Made by a program: the position numbers and the translations under genes. Positions 3,031-54,106 of a stretch of DNA of 64,000 bases are shown in pieces; the first letter of the stretch is position 1, and each line of letters opens with the position of its first letter. Origin of the DNA: a virus (Duplodnaviria > Heunggongvirae > Uroviricota > Caudoviricetes); IMG/VR virus record IMGVR_UViG_3300031999_007842, positions 53,708 to 117,707 of that record. One strand, given 5' to 3'. Under the pieces are notes generated by a model, which was not told the origin of the DNA, ran no database searches, and saw only the letters and a list, made by a program, of their open reading frames with translations.

Positions 3031-3457
3031 TCAAGAAACTAATGGATAAACTGACTGCGTGTCCTCTTGCAAGTGGAAATCCTTGTGTAACCTTCAATGA
3101 TTCTCATTGTCCTCTTTGTTGTCATACTTGTCTAGTTGAAGACTGTCAGTATGAATGTCTTCGTTCTCTAGCTAATAGATGGGGCAAGCAACGAAGGTGA
3201 TAACTGATGAAGTGGCAAAGGAGAAGTAAGGGATTGTCTTTCGGAAGGAAATGCCATGTCTGTCATCAAATCTTCTATTGCTCCCACGGCAAGGGTGCAG
3301 AATTCAACTGTGCAGTGATGACTAAACCATTCTCCTGTACATGCCCTGCCTGCTGTGGAACATCTTCTGAGGATTGTCTACACCATTGTTTTCACATTCG
3401 AAAAGGCTCTAAGGAATATAGTATGTTGAAGCTTCTATCCAAAATTGAGGGTCCAAG

Positions 3458-3724
3458 ATGACGAAGGTTAGAGCAGTCTTTGATGCACGGCTAACTCCTA
3501 GAAACATATGGAAAATAATCCTCGAAGGGAAGCATCCAAAGTGTGACCTAGAATATAATGGTCATTCTGACCCACGTCTCTTTCTCTTCAGGTGCTTCTC
3601 ATGCACTCAATCTTTCTGTGCCTATTGGGATGGATTCCTGAAGAGGGAGGAGCTGGAGAAAGTATTCAGCACTAAGGACTTAGTCTATCTAGGGAAAAGA
3701 AGATGTGAGGATAATGGAAGATAG
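3458..3724 (+). CDS. W-x-[KR]-I-L family small protein (IWKIILEGKHPKC)
   Basis: motif plus Cys cluster; ATGA overlap with upstream ORF. Confidence 0.4.
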   Translation: MTKVRAVFDARLTPRNIWKIILEGKHPKCDLEYNGHSDPRLFLFRCFSCTQSFCAYWDGFLKREELEKVFSTKDLVYLGKRRCEDNGR

Positions 3725-5586: not shown

Positions 5587-5889
5587 TTGAAATCAAATTC
5601 AGGAGAATCAGGAGGAAGTATCGTGTCAAAGAATAAGGCCTTCATCGTGACCCTCACAGGTTATGGTGATGATGAGGGATTCGAAGTGGTGTATGCCACT
5701 CTCGACAAAGCAAAGACAGATGATATTCTCAGACTATGGGATATCGTACAGGCTAACCAGCACAAGTTCTATGGGAGAAAGCCAGAGAGGAATCCTATGT
5801 GCATAGCATTGAAGGAACTGCAGGACAAGTACCATATCATAACTTGGTCAGGTAGAGACCTCAAGGTAGAGGAACTTGACTTACAGTAG
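5587..5889 (+). CDS. hypothetical protein
   Basis: 100-aa ORF. Confidence 0.45.
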   Translation: MKSNSGESGGSIVSKNKAFIVTLTGYGDDEGFEVVYATLDKAKTDDILRLWDIVQANQHKFYGRKPERNPMCIALKELQDKYHIITWSGRDLKVEELDLQ

Positions 5890-5902
5890 GAAGGTGGAAT
5901 AG

Positions 5903-6319
5903 ATGGAAGCATTCAAGGAAGAGGAGAAACACAACCTAAAGAAAGCTTGGTTCGGATACATCCGTTGCTTCAGTAAGAGCTGTGACTTTATCTTCAAGCA
6001 TGTGGGTAAGGGACAGCGTCAGGTGTGCTGTAAGGCGTGCAGGACTAAGATTCCCAAGGAAGTGCCAAGGATAAAAATCTCAGGAAGCTGGTACTACTAC
6101 ACGGGTCACTACTGCTTGAAGTGTGCCATTGAGAAGATAAGTGGAGACATTCAAGAGAAATCAGACCTTGCCAAGAACCTACAGGACAATCTTGCTGAGC
6201 TAATAGCACTGCTTGAGGTAATATCTCATGCCGCTTCAAAGGAGAAGTACAAAGACCTCATGGCAATCCATATCCTCAGCCAGAAGCTAGAGCCAAAGAA
6301 GGACTGGGAATTCACTTGA
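5903..6319 (+). CDS. hypothetical Cys-containing protein
   Basis: 138-aa ORF, CxxC pairs. Confidence 0.45.
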   Translation: MEAFKEEEKHNLKKAWFGYIRCFSKSCDFIFKHVGKGQRQVCCKACRTKIPKEVPRIKISGSWYYYTGHYCLKCAIEKISGDIQEKSDLAKNLQDNLAELIALLEVISHAASKEKYKDLMAIHILSQKLEPKKDWEFT

Positions 6320-9442: not shown

Positions 9443-10903
9443 ATGAGAGATGGAGAAATAGTATTACAAGAACTGAAGAATGACGAGCAACTTGAAGCTC
9501 TGAGATTGAACCTGAAGCTCTATGGCTTCGACCTGACGGTGGATAAACTGAAGGAGATGCTAACTGTATCTGAGCCTGAACTATTATACACGAATGGTCT
9601 ATCAGGATACTCGAAGCAGTCTGCAGTCTTGCTGCAGGTCAAGAAAGTAATCACGAACACAAGAGGAACGCTGAAGCTAGTCCTGATGAGTAATGGCAAG
9701 TTCCTTTGCTTCAACAAGGAATGCAGGCCAATAGACATAGACCTATTCAACACATCGTATGATGTTAGGACTGGAGTGATCTGGGAACAGATCAAAGTGG
9801 GAATCTATGTTGTGTTCAATGAAGACCACTATGAACAAAAGTATAGAGTAGCCACACTAACTGATTGCATGGATCGAGTGCAAGCCGAACATTGGCTGTC
9901 CCTCTACACTGGATGCCTCAAGAAACGACAGGGCTTCCAAAGTACTGAAGAGATGAGGAACTTACAACATATCAAGAATGAGGGTATGGTTGCTACTAGT
10001 ATCCTGCAGACCGAGTTCGATGACACCAACACTGTCATAGCCTTGATAAACAAACTAGAGAATGAAGAGACAATCAAAAAGGCTGATGCCCTCAAGAATG
10101 ACATTACTATTACAGTGGGCAAGACATCCAAGATAGTCATCACAGGTCTGGACAATCACACCTACTCTGTGGAAGCTCCACCGACTAAAGTCTGGGACAC
10201 TGAGACATTCACTGCATTCATCTACAGGCATAGATACCAGTGGAAGAAATATGATCAAGACAACGTGAAGTCAAGCACATTGTATCCAGCACTAATGCAG
10301 ATCCTAGCATCCACCAGAGAGGACTGGTTCAACCTGTCAGTGGACAACAAGCCTCCAGTGAAGATAGCAATCAAGCACATCCAGAACAAGAGAGGACAAG
10401 AGACCACAATTGCCTACCTCAATAACAAGAGAGTGGCTTATGAAGACATGTATCAGGCTGTGTTCAAATACTTCCTACAGGGAGCTAAGCTGGAAGACCT
10501 CACAGAGGAACCTGAAGACTTGGATGAAGCCGAGAAGCAGAGACACCTGCAGGTAAAGAAGATGCGGGACGAAGGGATCATCACTTCAGGGATACATGGA
10601 TACATCACTGACTTGGAAGGAGAGACACCGATCACAATAGGCTTTGAGAAGGAAGGAGCCAGTTGGAACCTAGTCATAGGGGAGAAGAGAATCCTTCTGA
10701 AGGGTGGTGTTGTAACCATCAAGTCCCTAGAGAGAGTATTGAAGGGGACTGCTCAAGGATACAATTCAAGACACAGCACACACGAGCTATACCAGAGACT
10801 ATGTAAAGTCCTGACCTCAGACGAGGCCATAGAGATAATCCTAGAAGCGAAAGAGATGGGCAAGTTGCTCAAGGCTCTAGAAGTCAAAGGTCAACATCAA
10901 TAG
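9443..10903 (+). CDS. hypothetical protein, 486 aa (largest ORF in first half)
   Basis: long uninterrupted ORF with RBS-like GGTGAGAG upstream; no motif recognised. Confidence 0.6.
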   Translation: MRDGEIVLQELKNDEQLEALRLNLKLYGFDLTVDKLKEMLTVSEPELLYTNGLSGYSKQSAVLLQVKKVITNTRGTLKLVLMSNGKFLCFNKECRPIDIDLFNTSYDVRTGVIWEQIKVGIYVVFNEDHYEQKYRVATLTDCMDRVQAEHWLSLYTGCLKKRQGFQSTEEMRNLQHIKNEGMVATSILQTEFDDTNTVIALINKLENEETIKKADALKNDITITVGKTSKIVITGLDNHTYSVEAPPTKVWDTETFTAFIYRHRYQWKKYDQDNVKSSTLYPALMQILASTREDWFNLSVDNKPPVKIAIKHIQNKRGQETTIAYLNNKRVAYEDMYQAVFKYFLQGAKLEDLTEEPEDLDEAEKQRHLQVKKMRDEGIITSGIHGYITDLEGETPITIGFEKEGASWNLVIGEKRILLKGGVVTIKSLERVLKGTAQGYNSRHSTHELYQRLCKVLTSDEAIEIILEAKEMGKLLKALEVKGQHQ

Positions 10904-43560: not shown

Positions 43561-43794
43561 ATGGCCATTAATATGAGTGAATTAACACAGAAGAGACCAA
43601 GTTCTTGCCCACGGATACGTTCCTGTACGAACGAAGTAGATGAAATAGATTATAGTTCTACTTGTGCAAGCAAGAATTGGATTTGGTGTCCTCTCATGAA
43701 AGAAGAAGCCAAAAAATATCTACCTAAAGCTCTTCCCTGTGAGTGGAAAATGATAAAGAAATTAGAAGGTGAAAAAAAAGATGGAGAAAAGTGA
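43561..43794 (+). CDS. small Cys protein of the W[VI][FW]C...KKY family
   Basis: NWIWCPLMKEEAKKYLPKALPCEWKMIKKLEG. Confidence 0.4.
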   Translation: MAINMSELTQKRPSSCPRIRSCTNEVDEIDYSSTCASKNWIWCPLMKEEAKKYLPKALPCEWKMIKKLEGEKKDGEK

Positions 43795-45016
43795 AGAAAG
43801 AAAGTATGATAGTCCAGGAGAAAGAATGGACAAGTTAATGCTGGAACTGAAGAAGAAACGAAGCCTTAAGGGATTGAGAACAGCAGTCTCTGAAGTCCTG
43901 GGAGCAGCCCCTGGAGATATGAAAGACTTCAGTTTCAATATTGGTGCTCATAAATGGAGAGGGACCATTTACCAGAAACGTAACTCTCTGATGGGTACAG
44001 TTGTTTCCTTCTTCGATACTAAACTCTATGTAGTTCGTGGATATCCCAAGATCAAGTACTCTGATGATTCACGAGTCTATCTGAGAGATTGTGTAGCTCA
44101 AGAGAAGATAGATGGAAGCAACTTTGGAATATTCCTACTTCCAGATGGAACAATGATGGCCAAGACAAGAATGGTTGTCAACTGGAACAATGCTGCCTAC
44201 AAGCGAAAAGATAAGACATGGCGACAACTCTTTGAAATGATAGACAATGGAGATCTCTTGAGGCGCATCAATGAATTGATTGTCAATCATGACTGTGTTA
44301 TCTATGGAGAACTTTATGGGAAGCTCAACCCAGGAGACTTTGTCAAATATTCTGTAGACATAGCATTCAAAGTCTTTGACATCCTGACCCGTAAAACAAA
44401 TAGATTCTTGCCGGCAAGTGAAGTGTATCGACTCTGTGAAGTCTATGAGATTCCTCATGTACAAGAAACCTGGAATGGCATTCTAACTGACAAAGAAATA
44501 GAGAGAATTGAATTCGAACTACAAGATCAAGTGAAGGACGATGGAATGGAAGGTTGGGTAGCTAAGACCTTCTTCAAAGACGAGAAAGATGTTTACATGT
44601 GCAAACTGAAATGCCAGAAAGTCAAAGAGGAATGCTGGGACAAAGATAGAAAGCCAATGATTCCTACATCAATAGTTCGTAAGGCAGTTCGCAAGACGCT
44701 TGATAACTTCCCTGAAGCTAAGACGATTGAAGAAATGGAACCACATGTGCTGGATGAACTTCGAGAGGAAGTCGAGGAAGTGTTGATTCAACAGTCATTG
44801 GATAGAATCAGAGCAGAGATAAGATGGGCATTGACTCCAGAAGATGAGGACTTGCTAAAGATAGTCATTGATAAGATGAAGGAGATGCAGGATAGAGGAA
44901 TAGACTTGAGCAATAAAGGCCACGTTCTCTCTAACCTTTCCAGCGCTTTGGGAACGATAAGTGGTGGGAAACTCTATCAACTCTATCATGCAGCTTTACG
45001 AGACATAAACACCTAA
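43769..45016 (+). CDS. ATP-dependent RNA ligase, Rnl2-like (nucleotidyltransferase superfamily)
   Basis: motif I QEKIDGSNFGIF (Lys-x-Asp-Gly, Asn not Arg as in Rnl2 KIHGTN), motif IV EGWVAK, motif V KLKCQK. Confidence 0.55.
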   Translation: MKKKMEKSEERKYDSPGERMDKLMLELKKKRSLKGLRTAVSEVLGAAPGDMKDFSFNIGAHKWRGTIYQKRNSLMGTVVSFFDTKLYVVRGYPKIKYSDDSRVYLRDCVAQEKIDGSNFGIFLLPDGTMMAKTRMVVNWNNAAYKRKDKTWRQLFEMIDNGDLLRRINELIVNHDCVIYGELYGKLNPGDFVKYSVDIAFKVFDILTRKTNRFLPASEVYRLCEVYEIPHVQETWNGILTDKEIERIEFELQDQVKDDGMEGWVAKTFFKDEKDVYMCKLKCQKVKEECWDKDRKPMIPTSIVRKAVRKTLDNFPEAKTIEEMEPHVLDELREEVEEVLIQQSLDRIRAEIRWALTPEDEDLLKIVIDKMKEMQDRGIDLSNKGHVLSNLSSALGTISGGKLYQLYHAALRDINT

Positions 45017-45848: not shown

Positions 45849-45992
45849 GCGGAGGTGGCTGAGTCAGGTTTAAAGCGCCAGACTGCTAACAGGGGCGAAA
45901 CTTGAAACAGGGTGATACTGGAATCGAATCATTAACCTGACAGATATCTGGTGGGCTTGCCCGCGAAGGTTCAAATCCTTCCCTCCGCGCCA
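45849..45992 (+). tRNA. tRNA-Ser(GCT), 57-nt intron at 37/38 (45889..45945), CCA encoded
   Basis: acceptor GCGGAGG/CCTCCGC, D-arm, anticodon stem CCAGA/TCTGG, loop CUGCUA|A, long variable arm, T-arm GAAGG-TTCAAAT-CCTTC, GCCA end. Confidence 0.7.
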
Positions 45993-46004
45993 GTTACAAG
46001 GAAT

Positions 46005-46160
46005 GCAGGGGTAGCTAAGTCAGGCCGAAAGCGCCGGGCTTAAGCGTCTTTCAAAGACCTTGAGGGCGTAGCTAAGAGGCGTTAAGCTCAAAGGCTTGAC
46101 ACTGAGACACCCGGTCACATAGGTGAAACATCGCCGGTTCGAATCCGGCCCCCTGCACCA
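46005..46160 (+). tRNA. tRNA-Leu(TAA), 64-nt intron at 37/38 (46045..46108), CCA encoded
   Basis: acceptor GCAGGGG/CCCCTGC, anticodon stem CCGGG/CCCGG, loop CUUAAG, variable hairpin TCAC-ATAG-GTGA, T-arm GCCGG-TTCGAAT-CCGGC; intron repeats exon segment GTAGCTAAG. Confidence 0.7.
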
Positions 46161-46167
46161 GTAACAT

Positions 46168-46241
46168 GCCGATGTAGCCTAACTAGGAAAGGCAGTGGCT
46201 TTGTAAGCCACCTCATAGGAGTTCAACTCTCCTCATCGGCT
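46168..46241 (+). tRNA. tRNA-Thr(TGT), intronless, no CCA
   Basis: full cloverleaf: GCCGATG/CATCGGC, GTGGC-TTTGTAA-GCCAC, AGGAG-TTCAACT-CTCCT. Confidence 0.7.
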
Positions 46242-46244
46242 TTT

Positions 46245-46317
46245 GGATCTATAGCATAACAAGGCAGTGCAGTGGACCTTTAATCCACATATCCGAGTTC
46301 AAATCTCGGTAGATCCA
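46245..46317 (+). tRNA. tRNA-Lys(TTT), intronless, no CCA; unusual C at position 33
   Basis: GGATCTA/TAGATCC, GTGGA-CCTTTAA-TCCAC, CCGAG-TTCAAAT-CTCGG. Confidence 0.55.
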
Positions 46318-46320
46318 TTC

Positions 46321-46394
46321 GGACCATTAGCTTAACCAGGTAGAGCGGTAGACCCTTAATCTACTAATTGCGGGTTCAAATCCCGCATGGTCCT
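46321..46394 (+). tRNA. tRNA-Lys(CTT), intronless, no CCA; C at position 33
   Basis: GGACCAT/ATGGTCC, GTAGA-CCCTTAA-TCTAC, GCGGG-TTCAAAT-CCCGC. Confidence 0.55.
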
Positions 46395-46399
46395 TCAGT

Positions 46400-46471
46400 G
46401 GCTTGAGTAGTGTAGTAGCAGCACAGTGGTCTGTGGAGCCACGAGCAAGAGTGCAATCCTCTTCTCAAGCC
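46400..46471 (+). tRNA. tRNA-His(GTG) with G-1, intronless, no CCA
   Basis: extra 5' G pairing with discriminator C; GTGGT-CTGTGGA-GCCAC; T-loop TGCAATC (non-canonical position 55). Confidence 0.6.
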
Positions 46472-46478
46472 CTCATAT

Positions 46479-46552
46479 GCCTGAGTGGACAAGCCTGGAA
46501 AGTCAGTTGCCTGCAGAGCAACTAAGCGGGGGTTCAAATCCCCTCTCAGGCT
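46479..46552 (+). tRNA. tRNA-Cys(GCA), intronless, no CCA
   Basis: GCCTGAG/CTCAGGC, GTTGC-CTGCAGA-GCAAC, GGGGG-TTCAAAT-CCCCT. Confidence 0.6.
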
Positions 46553-46557
46553 TTCAA

Positions 46558-46977
46558 GCAGGTGTGATGTAATGGCAACATCCCAGCCTTCCAAAGTCAA
46601 ACAGAAGGGCTAATAGATCACCATCACTTGTATAAGTGGTGATAAAATGAAAACACCAGCACAAATCAATAAAGAATATAGACAAAGAGTAAGAGAAAAG
46701 GCAAATCAAGTCTTCGGGAAGAAATGTTTCTTCTGCGGACATGAAGTAGGAAGAATGCCTCTTCATAATAAGAAAGGAGAAAAGCATCCTACTGATTTGA
46801 CTGCAAGAGAAGCTTTGAAGAATCCTGAAGATTGGGTTCGTCTATGCAAACATTGCCATCGAGGAGTTCATTTCTCTATGAATATCCTTGAAATGGATTG
46901 GGAACAAATAGTTAAACTAGCAAAGAAAGTTTGACTGAGGAAAGCTGATTATCTGGGTTCAATTCCCAGCACCTGCA
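46558..46977 (+). tRNA. tRNA-Gly(TCC) interrupted by a 349-nt intron (46594..46942) that contains an HNH endonuclease ORF
   Basis: 5' exon GCAGGTG-TG-ATGT-AATGGCA-ACAT-C-CCAGC-CUUCCA; 3' exon A-GCTGA-TTAT-CTGGG-TTCAATT-CCCAG-CACCTGC-A. Confidence 0.55.
46647..46934 (+). CDS. HNH endonuclease encoded inside the tRNA-Gly intron
   Basis: CFFCGHE...LHNKKGEKH...CKHCHRGVH = CxxC...HN...CxxH HNH-like; ORF ends 8 nt before the 3' exon. Confidence 0.5.
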   Translation: MKTPAQINKEYRQRVREKANQVFGKKCFFCGHEVGRMPLHNKKGEKHPTDLTAREALKNPEDWVRLCKHCHRGVHFSMNILEMDWEQIVKLAKKV

Positions 46978-46983
46978 CTCATA

Positions 46984-47058
46984 GGGGTAGTGGTGTAGTT
47001 TGGTCAACATCCCTGGCTTGGAACCAGGTGAACGTCAGTTCGAGTCTGGCCTACCCCA
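46984..47058 (+). tRNA. tRNA-Pro(TGG), intronless, no CCA
   Basis: GGGGTAG/CTACCCC, CCTGG-CTTGGAA-CCAGG, GTCAG-TTCGAGT-CTGGC. Confidence 0.65.
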
Positions 47059-47073
47059 CTCATAGTCACGGTT

Positions 47074-47166
47074 TGGATAGGAGTTGTTGAGATGGGAACC
47101 GTGCACATCATAGCTTTACCTACTGAGGAAAAAGACTTTGCGACGGAACAACTAAGCTCCTATCCG
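47074..47166. other. long imperfect hairpin / tRNA-like remnant (14-bp stem GGATAGGAGTTGTT..AACAACTAAGCTCCTATCC)
   Basis: stem visible in sequence; no cloverleaf could be fitted. Confidence 0.3.
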
Positions 47167-47191
47167 TTAATTAAACTATCGAGGTTATAAC

Positions 47192-47328
47192 ATGACAGCA
47201 CTCAAAGATTGCAACAAGTGTGGTAAACAAGTAGACATGAAAGAGATAACCATCGTCTGGGATCCAGAAGGGCACTCTTTTACTTGGGTGTGTGGAAAAT
47301 GCCTCAAGATATATCGGCAACGTATATA
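47192..47328 (+). CDS. small zinc-ribbon protein (45 aa, below ORF-track cutoff)
   Basis: MTALKDCNKCGKQ...WVCGKCLKIY; ATG with upstream GAGG. Confidence 0.3.
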
Positions 47329-47607
47329 AGTAAGAGCGAATACCTATATATAGTCCAGTAAGTGAGAAGATGGCATACACAACTATGGCTTCACATCCGG
47401 ATGCGGGTTATTAGCCCGCAACCCAGAATCGGCTGGCAGTCGACTGGGAGGGTGAGGAGTCAGATGAGTGGGAAAGAAGAAGCATATCAAAGGAATAAAG
47501 GAACACACTACCTGCAGAAGGTGTCGTGTCCCGATAGTCTCTTGGAGTGCACTAGACCCAGTATGCATAAACTGTGCAATCTGGGGAGGACCCAAGAAAG
47601 ACTAAAT

Positions 47608-47795: not shown

Positions 47796-48764
47796 ATGGA
47801 TAAGAAATTGCTCTATCTCAAGTCAGTAAACCATGATGTCATCACTGTCTATATTGCTAAGGGAAGTTCTGTCCAGAAGACATTGAACTTACTGAAAAGA
47901 GAAGAGCCAATCGTACAGAATATTAAATCAAGAGTGACTAGGCAAGCAATCGAGACAGCATTCCAGAAGATCAAAAGCTTCCTAGCTAGTCCTCCTCCTT
48001 CAGAGAATGGATACATCGTTGTAGCTTCAGCCACTGACTTTGCTTGGACAGTAGAGTTCCTAATAGAGGAAGACTTCTATCGTTGTGGTAATGAATTCTA
48101 TTCTACACTTCTTGAAGAGATCCTATTACTCAAACTTTATCCAATAGGGATAATAACAATAGATACTAAGGAAGCCACGTTAGGTCACATAGGTTCCACG
48201 ATCCAGATTCTCAAGTACATGACTTCAGGAATACCAGGGAAGAGTCACAAAGGAGGACAATCTCAACGAAGGTATGAACGTGAAAGAGACATGGCAGTTG
48301 CAGCTTTCTTCAAACGAGTAGGAGATGCTGCTAAACTCTTTGTGGAGAACTATCCCATAGAAGAACTATTGATCTCTGGATGTGGGCAGACAAAGGATGA
48401 CTTCCTAAAGGCAAAGTACTTAGACTACCGCCTCAAAGCGAAGGTCACTGAAGTCATTGATACCCAATACACTGGTGAGCACGGAATCAGGGAAACCCTG
48501 CACAAAGCACTACCCCTTCTACAGAAGAATGCTTATGCAAGGGAGGTCCAGGTCGTTGAAAGGGTGTTTGAAATGCTGGGTAAGAACTTTGAGGCAGTAG
48601 TCTATGGACAAGATGAGATCAAGAGGCAGATTCATTCAATCAAGAAGATTATCAAGATAGAAGAGATCAAGGAAGAATATCAGAAGGAAACAGTTATCTT
48701 GCACTTTCACGGGGAACATTATGAGAAGATTAAGTCCTTGGGAGGAATAGTCGGAACCAAATAA
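47796..48764 (+). CDS. class-I peptide chain release factor, aRF1/eRF1-like, C-terminally truncated (322 aa)
   Basis: domain-1 NIKS motif (IVQNIKSRV) and YxCxxxF (YRCGNEF), domain-2 GGQ motif (HKGGQSQRRYER); by eye about 75 aa of domain-3-like sequence follows before the ORF ends. Confidence 0.7.
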   Translation: MDKKLLYLKSVNHDVITVYIAKGSSVQKTLNLLKREEPIVQNIKSRVTRQAIETAFQKIKSFLASPPPSENGYIVVASATDFAWTVEFLIEEDFYRCGNEFYSTLLEEILLLKLYPIGIITIDTKEATLGHIGSTIQILKYMTSGIPGKSHKGGQSQRRYERERDMAVAAFFKRVGDAAKLFVENYPIEELLISGCGQTKDDFLKAKYLDYRLKAKVTEVIDTQYTGEHGIRETLHKALPLLQKNAYAREVQVVERVFEMLGKNFEAVVYGQDEIKRQIHSIKKIIKIEEIKEEYQKETVILHFHGEHYEKIKSLGGIVGTK

Positions 48765-53137: not shown

Positions 53138-54106
53138 ATGGAAATGAAGAATAAGACTGTAATAGGTAAGAAGATATTCGCCTATGTTAAAGTCAAGGAC
53201 CTGAAGATTTCCGAATATAATGTTAGGCCAGGAGCCACACCTGAAGAGAAGGAGGAAATCAAGACTGAATTAGCCAAGTCGATAAAAGAGCTAGGACTTC
53301 AACAACTTCCAGTTATCACTCCAGAAGGAGAAGTCTTCATTGGAGGGCGGAGAACTATAGCATTCAAAGAACTTGGAGAGGAATGGATGCTTGCCGAGAT
53401 CAGAAATGCTGCACCCTTTGAACAGATGATTGCTTCTTACACAGAGAACTTCCATAGAAAGAGTCCAGATTATATGAATGAAGGTAGACTTTTCAAAGAG
53501 ATGATCAAGGAAGGAGTTGCAAAAGGAGATATCAAGTTGCAAGGCCATGGTGACAAGGGGCATGGTATACTTGGCAAGAAACTAGGAATTTCCAATGATT
53601 ATGTAGATGCCAGGGTTAGAATCTTTGAAACTCTCAGTTCCGCCGCCGGCGGATCTGGAATAGCCTTTGAACAAGCAAGGATGCTAAGTACCTCAGATAT
53701 ACCAGATGATAAAAGGGCAGAACTTGTAAAGATGGCAAGTGAAGGAATCAAGACCCAAGATCTCAAGAAGATTATAGCAACTACAAATGCTACCAAGGCA
53801 CTACTTGAGGGAGAAACCGAGGAAGTACAGAAACAAGCAGAAAAGGAATTCAAAGACCAACTATATACTAAGGACTTGGACATTACAGCGATTAAATGGA
53901 GACTCGAAGAGATCGCTGGAGATTCCCATTCAACTGGCAAAGGAAGAATCTGGTGGGATGAGCATGGAATCACTTCAACAGAGGAAGCAATAGCGTGGTT
54001 CAAGAAATATGGTGGTCGACATCTTAGAGATCTAAAAGGTTCAGATGGCGAATGGGACAAGACAAAGGAGAAAATGACAAACGGAGGAAAGAATGAGGAT
54101 GACTGA
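53138..54106 (+). CDS. ParB/sulfiredoxin-like nuclease-domain protein
   Basis: LAKSIKELGLQQLPVITPEGEVFIGGRRTIAFKELG matches the ParB N-terminal box (G.RR..A). Confidence 0.55.
   Translation: MEMKNKTVIGKKIFAYVKVKDLKISEYNVRPGATPEEKEEIKTELAKSIKELGLQQLPVITPEGEVFIGGRRTIAFKELGEEWMLAEIRNAAPFEQMIASYTENFHRKSPDYMNEGRLFKEMIKEGVAKGDIKLQGHGDKGHGILGKKLGISNDYVDARVRIFETLSSAAGGSGIAFEQARMLSTSDIPDDKRAELVKMASEGIKTQDLKKIIATTNATKALLEGETEEVQKQAEKEFKDQLYTKDLDITAIKWRLEEIAGDSHSTGKGRIWWDEHGITSTEEAIAWFKKYGGRHLRDLKGSDGEWDKTKEKMTNGGKNEDD

Follow-up and report, generated by a model that had tools for sequence, protein, structure and literature searches.

A Split tRNA-Gly(UCC) Gene With a Probable Protein-Coding Bulge-Helix-Bulge Intron in a Virus-Like tRNA Array

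Introduction

The tRNA-Gly(UCC) gene described here raises the question of how a tRNA gene can remain in use when an open reading frame (ORF) separates its two halves within the anticodon loop. The gene is located in a stretch of 64,000 nucleotides (nt) of viral DNA (positions 53,708 to 117,707 of the IMG/VR record IMGVR_UViG_3300031999_007842; hereafter the window), which is part of a 172-kb contig. It belongs to an array of tRNA genes, occupies positions 46558-46978 of the plus strand and is interrupted directly 3' of tRNA position 37 by a sequence that contains an ORF for an HNH-like protein. An initial annotation, made from the letters of the DNA, had preferred a protein-coding tRNA intron of the bulge-helix-bulge (BHB) type and had named a tRNA gene recently disrupted by an HNH insertion as the other possibility. 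The preferred reading is supported by the BHB geometry of the junctions, by the lack of group I or group II intron matches and by an intronless relative. It is therefore considered highly probable that the interruption is a spliced BHB intron, which carries the gene of an HNH-like mobile family associated with tRNA arrays.

The Split tRNA-Gly(UCC) Gene

The coordinates of the features are compiled in Table 1. Those given initially for the exons, the intron and the ORF hold to the base, and the acceptor, D-arm, anticodon stem and loop assigned to the 5' exon were confirmed on re-reading. The 3' exon begins where it had been placed; its end moves from 46977 to 46978, since the discriminator A extends the gene. 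A CCA end is not encoded in this exon.

In the joined exons the anticodon loop reads C32 U33 U34 C35 C36 A37 A38, which places the intron at the canonical position 37/38, and ARAGORN calls the 72-nt product as tRNA-Gly(tcc). The split gene was called neither by default ARAGORN, which includes no intron search, nor by the Rfam tRNA model, while the neighboring Thr, Lys, Lys, His, Cys, and Pro genes were detected. With the option -i, ARAGORN returned a split tRNA at exactly the positions of the gene, with the junction 2 nt off and the label Arg-CCG. This label was rejected for Gly-UCC on the basis of the BHB register and of the allele present in L163, a syntenic relative (loci other than the window carry our own L numbers). 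The assignment as Gly(UCC) with an intron at 37/38 thus follows from the BHB geometry, the ARAGORN call on the joined exons and the uninterrupted L163 allele.

At least 120 viral contigs were found by an exact-match scan to contain the sequence of the anticodon arm after joining, CCAGCCTTCCAAGCTGA. Of 80 matching stretches that were inspected, 65 are located in intact tRNA-Gly(tcc) genes according to ARAGORN. Since intact genes share this arm, the C27·A43 mismatch is normal in this tRNA. The at least 120 matches are unrelated tRNA-Gly genes, and the scan was unhelpful for the identification of close relatives.

A Bulge-Helix-Bulge Motif at the Intron Junctions

A BHB motif consists here of an outer helix h, which is the anticodon stem, a central helix H flanked by two 3-nt bulges and an inner helix h'. 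Scanning for this motif gave one strong solution with p = 46593 and q = 46943, in which H pairs at 4 of 4 positions, h contains 4 base pairs (bp) and h' 8 bp. The full hBHBh' layout is CCAGC-CUUC-(CA/A)-AGUCAAAC opposite GUUUGACU-GAGG-(AA/A)-GCUGA, with the predicted cuts marked by slashes, and conforms to the archaeal BHB definition. The initial proposal to inspect the junctions for such a geometry therefore ended in a canonical motif, which furthermore covaries across 12 introns (see below). A cut after the second base of the bulge is what we take to be the cleavage position of the tRNA splicing endonuclease EndA, and it agrees with the boundary of the empty site in L163.

For a shuffle control, the exons were kept fixed and the intron was shuffled in 200,000 trials, with a 4/4 central helix and an inner helix of at least 4 bp as criterion. 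Such a motif was obtained in 64 of the 200,000 shuffled introns; the inner helix of the real intron has 8 bp. The whole precursor folds far better than shuffled sequences in RNAfold (z -5.5), and the minimum-energy structure contains the tRNA arms as well as the 8-bp h'.

A ribozyme was not detected: introns of group I or of group II gave no Rfam match at E ≤ 10 over window positions 45900-47300, and none at E ≤ 1 in the related loci L001, L010, L017, L020, L034, and L035. Only 61 of the 349 nt are non-coding, in line with the initial remark that a group I core would find no room beside the ORF. The ORF ends 8 nt before the 3' exon and its TGA stop codon lies within the 3' strand of h'. The terminal stretch of the ORF thus serves at the same time as 3' strand of this splice motif.

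Table 1. Features of the split tRNA-Gly(UCC) locus and related introns at other loci (window positions unless a locus is named; slashes within bulges mark predicted cuts)
Feature	Location	Strand	Details
5' exon, tRNA positions 1-37	46558-46593	+	Acceptor GCAGGUG, D-arm, anticodon stem CCAGC, loop CUUCCA
5' exon counterpart in intact allele	L163:2691-2727		By alignment
BHB-type intron, canonical 37/38	46594-46942	+	349 nt; BHB scan and gap against L163
Outer helix h (anticodon stem)			CCAGC / GCUGA; 4 bp plus C·A
Central helix H, 5' strand C32 U33 U34 C35	46588-46591	+	Pairs with GAGG 46937-46940; one G·U
5' 3-nt bulge CA/A	46592-46594	+	Predicted cut after A37 (46593)
Inner helix h', 5' strand AGUCAAAC	46595-46602	+	Pairs with GUUUGACU at 46929-46936; 8 bp
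Weak TATA-like element CTAATAGA	46610-46617	+	Aligned with (T/C)TTAAATA in related introns
Hairpin AUCACCAU...GUGGUGAU	46617-46643	+	Just 5' of start codon; 3' arm holds Shine-Dalgarno-like GGUGA
95-codon ORF	46647-46934	+	HNH-like (His-Me finger) zinc-binding protein, putative homing endonuclease
Inner helix h', 3' strand GUUUGACU	46929-46936	+	Overlaps last sense codon and stop codon of ORF
Central helix 3' strand GAGG (46937-46940) and 3' bulge AA/A (46941-46943)	46937-46943	+	Predicted cut before A38 (46943)
3' exon	46943-46978	+	A38, GCUGA, variable loop, T-arm CUGGG-UUCAAUU-CCCAG, acceptor CACCUGC, discriminator A73
tRNA array	45849-47059	+	Ser(GCU), Leu(UAA), Thr, Lys, Lys, His, Cys, Gly(UCC, split), Pro
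tRNA-Ser(GCU)	45849-45992		57-nt BHB intron 45889-45945; encodes CCA
tRNA-Leu(UAA)	46005-46160		64-nt BHB intron 46045-46108; encodes CCA
RNA ligase gene	43769-45016		PF09414, E = 1e-18; immediately 5' of array
Truncated aRF1/eRF1-like gene	47796-48764		Right after array; 322 amino acids (aa) versus about 410
tRNA-Arg-UCG intron	L001		343 nt; canonical 37/38 BHB
tRNA-Arg-UCU intron	L001		407 nt; canonical 37/38 BHB
tRNA-Tyr-GUA intron	L001		502 nt; canonical 37/38 BHB
tRNA-Pro-UGG intron	L010		398 nt; canonical 37/38 BHB
tRNA-Asp-GUC intron	L020		468 nt; canonical 37/38 BHB
tRNA-Ala-UGC intron	L034 (Aenigmatarchaeota genome)		454 nt; canonical 37/38 BHB
tRNA-Ala-UGC intron	L035 (Woesearchaeota genome)		454 nt; canonical 37/38 BHB
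tRNA-Gln-UUG intron	L040		390 nt; canonical 37/38 BHB
tRNA-Gln-UUG intron	L038		436 nt; canonical 37/38 BHB
tRNA-Val-UAC intron	L017		Relaxed motif

An Intronless Allele in a Close Relative

Relatives of the element were traced through the aRF1-like gene located just downstream of the array. Here, L163 is a contig of 122 kb, which contains an RNA ligase, the tRNA array, and aRF1-like, Topo VI-A-like, Cas4-like, and ParB-like genes in the order of the window. Between its Cys and Pro genes an uninterrupted tRNA-Gly(UCC) gene is present, so that the intact allele for which a search had been recommended does exist. Window positions 46477-46594 align with L163 2611-2727 and positions 46942-47329 with L163 2726-3109; based on these boundaries, L163 lacks exactly the 349-nt intron. 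L162, although 95% identical, diverges just upstream, has no tRNA array and was discarded for this comparison, as were the more distant relatives of the aRF1-like gene, which have no adjacent tRNA array.

The joined exons are identical to the L163 tRNA-Gly at 64 of 72 positions, and two stem changes between window and L163 are compensatory (G4:C69 to A:U, and U13:A22 to C:G). Compensation of this kind argues for a continuing selection of the split gene as a tRNA, and sequence comparison thus supports a tRNA-Gly(UCC) gene that is probably functional rather than dead. The anticodon loop of L163 is CCUCCAA with C33, and the GAGG of the intron would pair perfectly with CCUC. The C33 may reflect either the history of the intron or a resistance of the L163 allele.

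A second difference concerns the same gene family. L163 harbors a free-standing family member (3178-3555, 125 aa, E = 6e-28 with the family hidden Markov model, HMM) within a segment of about 450 nt (L163:3110-3561), which is absent from the window at 47329/47347, right after a small zinc-ribbon ORF (47192-47329). Window and L163 therefore differ by two insertions, both from one gene family, and these two presence/absence polymorphisms indicate recent mobility.

Related Introns in Other tRNA Genes

Metagenomic and genomic loci were screened by combining the family HMM, the BHB scan and ARAGORN on the spliced product. Related ORF-containing introns were found in at least ten other tRNA genes (Table 1), one of them, in L017, with a relaxed motif. 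L001, 21 kb in length, encodes a family-B DNA polymerase and possesses an extensive tRNA array, in which three family ORFs each reside inside a split tRNA gene; tRNA-Tyr genes of class I, the archaeal type, are present in L001 and L040. In the Woesearchaeota genome L035, the split tRNA-Ala is located between the 16S and 23S rRNA genes. This is the classic spacer tRNA of an rRNA operon, for which a loss of function is unlikely.

For the analysis of covariation, an alignment of 12 splice regions was made, ten from ORF introns and two from the short introns of the window. In this alignment, 89.1% of the cells pair, compared to 53.3% in shuffles, and the covariation score is 0.953 versus 0.239 for shuffled alignments, with none of the 500 shuffles reaching the real score. 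Every slid register remained at or below 50.6% paired. The central helix H tracks the anticodon loop of each individual tRNA and is paired to 97.9%, and h', which was left free by the screen, is paired to 82%, and at each of its seven pairs both strands show changes.

The loop CUUCNAA is common to the Gly-UCC, Arg-UCG, and Arg-UCU hosts of closely related introns, which carry the matching GAAG or GAGG. This sharing fits a movement between similar sites.

In the same loci some further observations were made. The 16S rRNA match of L035 spans 2166 nt (L035:1-2166) for model positions 45-1831 and must therefore contain insertions, and a distance of about 1.66 kb lies between the split tRNA-Ala and the beginning of the 23S rRNA (L035:2813-4472). 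Further introns or inserted genes in this rRNA operon are likely. Just 3' of the split tRNA-Arg(UCG) of L001, a tRNA-Trp(CCA) with an ORF-less intron of about 105 nt was read by eye (L001:2521-2690).

The Intron-Encoded HNH-Like Protein Family

The ORF of the window has one close homologue, which shares 62% identity and resides in another tRNA intron (L001). A profile search against 1.8 billion representative proteins revealed 569 clusters at E ≤ 1e-3, of which 196 remain at E ≤ 1e-10. None of these clusters bears a name or a Pfam domain, and there is no Pfam model for the family. The proteins consist either of 95-160 aa alone or of two copies behind tandem helix-turn-helix domains. In 57 sequences, the six residues C27, C30, H40, C70, H71, and H75 do not vary and form the pattern CxxC…H…CxxCH…H, and G24, G44, H47, C67, M78, and W85 are near-invariant. 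The Cys/His signature, which had initially been noticed in the single ORF, is therefore formed by residues conserved family-wide, and the putative catalytic His40 as well as the CxxCH...H helix are intact in the window.

The relation to known HNH profiles, which the initial annotation had proposed to examine by HMM searches, is only partly visible. The PHROG profile phrog_8048 ("HNH endonuclease") matches the ORF with E = 5.8e-5, whereas the Pfam family PF01844 (HNH) gave no match to it at E ≤ 1. One long relative matches PF01844 with E = 0.0075, and the best HNH match among PDB sequence profiles was McrA with E = 0.55; zinc-ribbon and DUF matches in Pfam stayed below threshold and were dismissed. 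Structure prediction of a family protein yielded a confident model with HNH nucleases as the nearest folds. The protein agrees with the structural definition of an HNH domain, namely a beta-hairpin and a helix that bear the catalytic His and the metal-binding His/Asn, often with two CxxC pairs as a zinc brace. We conclude that the ORF is an authentic gene, which encodes a divergent, zinc-braced putative nuclease of the HNH type.

Free-standing Members in tRNA Arrays

Other family members are located free between tRNA genes and on the same strand, in arrays of archaeal viruses as well as phages. In L003 and L005 the family gene adjoins a tRNA-Ala(UGC); L005 contains a bacterial-type class-II tRNA-Tyr and therefore probably belongs to a phage. 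The family gene likewise lies between tRNA genes in L013, L014, L016, L018, L029, and L032, and L037-L039 are archaeal virus-like arrays with family members. In a rough neighbor-joining tree, which is indicative only, intronic and free-standing members are interspersed, and the two DPANN tRNA-Ala introns group with phage-like copies abutting tRNA-Ala(UGC).

In three phage-like arrays (L003:2998-3312, L005:2947-3318, L014:2330-2755) the free-standing ORF overlaps the beginning of the tRNA gene that follows, which is Ala-UGC or His-GUG. These ORFs appear to borrow their C-terminal codons and their stop from the tRNA, as some intronic copies use the 3' exon.

Expression of the ORF

How an ORF inside a tRNA precursor is expressed is the weakest part of the model. 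A GGUGA is positioned 4 nt upstream of the ATG (46638-46642), and GGAGG/GGTGA motifs are enriched upstream of the window ORFs. Related introns contain (T/C)TTAAATA shortly 3' of the 5' splice helix and often a hairpin at the start region as well. Of ten tabulated ORF introns, four have a stop codon that ends beyond the initial base of the 3' exon and two others one that ends exactly on this base; the TGA stop of L020 and of L035 is the 3' bulge itself, and the ORF in the Arg-UCG gene of L001 stops 7 nt into the 3' exon. Taken together, the TATA-like box, the hairpin and the stop positions suggest that the ORF is expressed from a separate transcript with an intron-internal start. Since the 5' strand of the BHB motif would be missing from it, this RNA would stay uncut and be translated. 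A translation from the precursor or from the excised intron is possible. An internal TATA-box promoter, which was considered as well, is plausible for the related introns; within the window it is unsupported, since the motif is degenerate and not enriched there.

The hairpin or palindrome at the start of the intron ORF is recurrent (window 46617-46643, L001:2158-2181, L040:490-513, L034:2363-2381). It is strong in L001 (z -4.6), L040 (z -2.7), and L034 (z -4.5) and weak in the window and L038; for the window it amounts to -8.8 kcal/mol with z -1.35, which is not significant alone. In phage T4, a hairpin conceals the start region of I-TevI, which becomes accessible once a late transcript begins within the hairpin. 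The likeness consists of the recurrent start hairpin plus TATA-like box in several introns and is an analogy only, since those of the window are weak and degenerate, respectively. The recurrent hairpin may serve translational control or may be an operator, which overlaps the TATA-like box.

Proposed Mechanism and Alternative Explanations

The following sequence of events is proposed. The precursor would be transcribed within the tRNA array and its junctions would fold into the canonical hBHBh' motif. The EndA of the host would then cut after A37 and before A38, and a host ligase of the RtcB type would join the exons, with ...CCAGCCUUCCA connected to AGCUGAUUAU... at the junction. The 95-aa HNH-like zinc-finger nuclease would be made from the released intron or, more likely, from the separate intron-internal transcript. 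In co-resident genomes it would nick or cut intronless tRNA genes around the sequence coding for the anticodon loop, and recombinational repair would copy the intron into them, which would constitute homing. To our knowledge, all EndA types accept a canonical hBHBh' at 37/38, and therefore such an intron could work in many hosts. The replacement of a ribozyme by a host enzyme and a minimal motif would also explain why the intron is almost wholly coding.

What else could account for a tRNA gene split in this way? The family is often free-standing between tRNA genes and clearly mobile, which would agree with a free-standing HNH gene that was inserted into the anticodon loop and left a dead gene behind, a decaying pseudogene that is not spliced. 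However, the insertion lies exactly at 37/38 and forms a perfect 3-4-3 BHB motif with an 8-bp h' built from the intron's own ends, the exons carry compensatory stem changes compared to the intact L163 allele, and the same design is found in ten further tRNA genes, among them the rRNA-operon tRNA-Ala of a cellular genome, with a central helix that in every case fits the anticodon loop of the gene concerned. A dead gene is therefore regarded as highly unlikely, and the recent disruption by an HNH insertion, which the initial annotation had kept as its second option, is unlikely in view of the compensatory exon changes and the recurrent design. A further alternative accepts the spliced BHB intron and questions the ORF, which would then encode not an active homing nuclease but a domesticated or degenerate zinc-finger protein, such as a regulator or an RNA- or DNA-binding factor, within a vertically inherited intron. 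The very small size of 95 aa, the missing N-terminal extension of longer relatives, the weak similarity to characterized HNH enzymes and the general knowledge that homing endonuclease genes commonly degenerate after fixation point in this direction. Against it stand the six invariant residues including the putative catalytic His40, which are all intact, the recent mobility seen in the absence of the intron from a close relative and in the second-site polymorphism of the family, as well as the fusion of related proteins to tandem helix-turn-helix domains, which resembles other site-specific nucleases. We consider an inactive ORF unlikely overall and regard it as reasonably probable, with some reserve, that the encoded protein is an active homing nuclease.

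The remaining two alternatives concern the type of intron. HNH genes do occur in group I introns within anticodon loops of bacterial tRNA genes, for example at 35/36 in tRNA-Asn of Patescibacteria (PMC13011429), so that a self-splicing intron (group I, group II or a minimal ribozyme) with an HNH passenger would have a precedent. Yet neither the window nor the six related loci produced an Rfam match, the 61 nt outside the ORF compare with introns of more than 500 nt for group I tRNA introns with homing endonuclease genes, and the junctions obey the BHB rules; self-splicing can practically be dismissed. A tRNA intron of the eukaryotic type, in a virus of eukaryotes, would share the position 37/38 and would suit the eRF1-family gene beside the array. 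The genes of the window, however, are short, overlapping and on one strand with GGAGG/GGTGA upstream, tRNA-His has an encoded G-1 together with C73, some of the tRNAs encode CCA, and homologous introns are present in DPANN genomes, one of them in an archaeal rRNA operon. This origin is extremely improbable.

The spliced BHB intron with a homing nuclease gene is thus favored, and several points weigh against it. We infer splicing, nuclease activity and homing alike. In the minimum-energy structure of RNAfold the pairing is displaced by one position (UUCC/GGAA) and shows internal loops of 1x1 and 2x2 instead of the 3-4-3 BHB, and the latter is preferred on comparative grounds only, because it is conserved in all relatives. 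The screen demanded BHB-like pairing of h and H, and both are in consequence partly paired by construction. The number of informative close relatives is one, namely L163. Among the 108 ORFs of the window, no splicing endonuclease or RtcB gene was detected. Finally, the ORF of the window represents the shortest form of the family without the basic N-terminal extension of longer members, so that this protein may be unable to recognize a specific site alone.

Comparison With Known Systems

BHB introns often contain homing endonuclease genes (PMC6125680), which has been established for archaeal rRNA genes with LAGLIDADG enzymes. The introns of the I-DmoI, I-PorI, and I-ApeI type share with the one described here the splicing by proteins, a structural RNA gene as host, an ORF that fills most of the intron and a presence/absence polymorphism. 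In contrast, the intron is located here in a tRNA anticodon loop at 37/38 instead of an rRNA, the protein is an HNH-like zinc finger of an unannotated family instead of a LAGLIDADG enzyme, the replicon is virus- or plasmid-like and the ORF overlaps the helices of the splice motif. Ordinary archaeal tRNA introns, the hBHBh' class of Marck and Grosjean including the tRNA-Trp intron with its C/D-box small RNA, have the same position and the same 3-4-3 motif; these are short and do not code for protein, whereas the present intron comprises 349 nt and is protein-coding. A review of tRNA introns from 2014 makes no mention of homing or ORFs.

Group I introns in bacterial tRNA genes carry HNH and other homing endonuclease genes (PMC13011429). 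These introns of bacteria and phages, which encode HNH, LAGLIDADG or PD-(D/E)XK enzymes, are likewise mobile and placed in the anticodon loop with a homing endonuclease gene, which is sometimes of HNH type. They are self-splicing ribozymes, in contrast to the intron described here, which has no ribozyme and would need host proteins for splicing.

The genes of T4 SegB and of the T5 HNH enzymes reside among tRNA genes, as do those of many proteins of the family described here, and the enzymes presumably target the tRNA-gene DNA of competitors. The HNH enzymes of the T5 tRNA region are a free-standing example, and SegB is a GIY-YIG enzyme. In contrast to these intergenic genes, the ORF of the window lies inside a tRNA gene, where it would be tolerated because of the BHB motif. 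Free-standing nucleases in phage tRNA clusters, with SegB among those treated, have been described (PMC13096335).

A description of ORF-bearing BHB introns in tRNA genes was not found in the full-text literature searched, which leaves subscription journals largely outside, and a prior description is possible. Isolated phages and archaeal viruses gave no match with blastn, and none with tblastn for the ORF or the aRF1-like protein. The novelty would consist of a known mechanism, the BHB intron with a homing endonuclease gene, in a new class of host gene, with a new nuclease family and in viral tRNA arrays. It is tentatively proposed, as a possibility to be taken seriously, that these are the first recognized protein-coding BHB tRNA introns and constitute a widespread, hitherto unannotated mobile class, in which a tRNA-specialized HNH-type nuclease relies on the universal archaeal splicing machinery without any ribozyme.

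Tocchini-Valentini and colleagues reportedly proposed that introns with homing endonucleases hand over their splicing to the tRNA endonuclease. If the reading given here is correct, the family, which is free-standing in phage arrays and intronic in archaeal viruses and DPANN, would record this handover step and make it testable. Mobile introns without ribozymes would furthermore bear on the question why some tRNA introns arise and move, and would offer a mechanism for the gain of archaeal tRNA introns. Gene conversion between competitors, driven by nucleases, appears to take place in the tRNA arrays of both archaeal viruses and phages. For annotation, this means that tRNA finders without an intron search overlook such genes, in addition to a nuclease family without a Pfam model. 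A putative tRNA-gene-specific nuclease of 95 aa may be useful as a tool, as may the minimal splice cassette, which measures about 35 nt.

Genomic Context

Two further BHB introns in the array, the aRF1-like and Topo VI-A-like genes, the encoded G-1 of tRNA-His, the A73 of tRNA-Gly and the class-I tRNA-Tyr genes of L001 and L040 are archaeal signs, and the replicon is most likely a large archaeal virus or an extrachromosomal element. All credible ORFs of the window are on the plus strand, the genes are mostly unknown, with 14 Pfam families among the 108 ORFs, and the GC skew is uniformly positive over positions 1-64000, at about +0.16. The window probably represents a single replichore of a large archaeal element, most of which is unknown. 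Its genes include SPFH, MoxR-like AAA+, VWA-like, a ParB-like partition nuclease, a Cas4-like nuclease and a Topo VI-A/Spo11 Toprim domain.

Within the array, the tRNA-Ser(GCU) and tRNA-Leu(UAA) genes were also missed by default ARAGORN. They are 96% identical to L163:1514-1840, introns included, and show compensatory stem changes; the short introns are therefore as conserved as the exons.

On both sides of the array, genes with a possible role in RNA metabolism or translation are present. The order of ligase, aRF1-like and Topo VI-A-like genes is kept in L164 and L165, which do not contain the array, and the RNA ligase could serve tRNA repair or exon joining. The aRF1-like protein has kept the GGQ motif; its domain 2 is strongly and its domains 1 and 3 are weakly recognizable. 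Its clade comprises about 40 clusters at 54% identity or more, some of which are encoded on contigs above 100 kb (up to 157 kb). A virus-encoded release factor with an altered reading of stop codons is possible.

Translation-related genes were also observed at other loci. L038, a virus-like contig with a family-B DNA polymerase, contains a gene with a Ribosomal_L16 domain (L038:969-1505). In L169/L170, relatives of the element, TROVE/Ro60-like, PTH2-like, and RlaP genes are present (1462-2262, 5859-6167, and 9509-9969), which suggests a set of genes related to RNA repair and translation.

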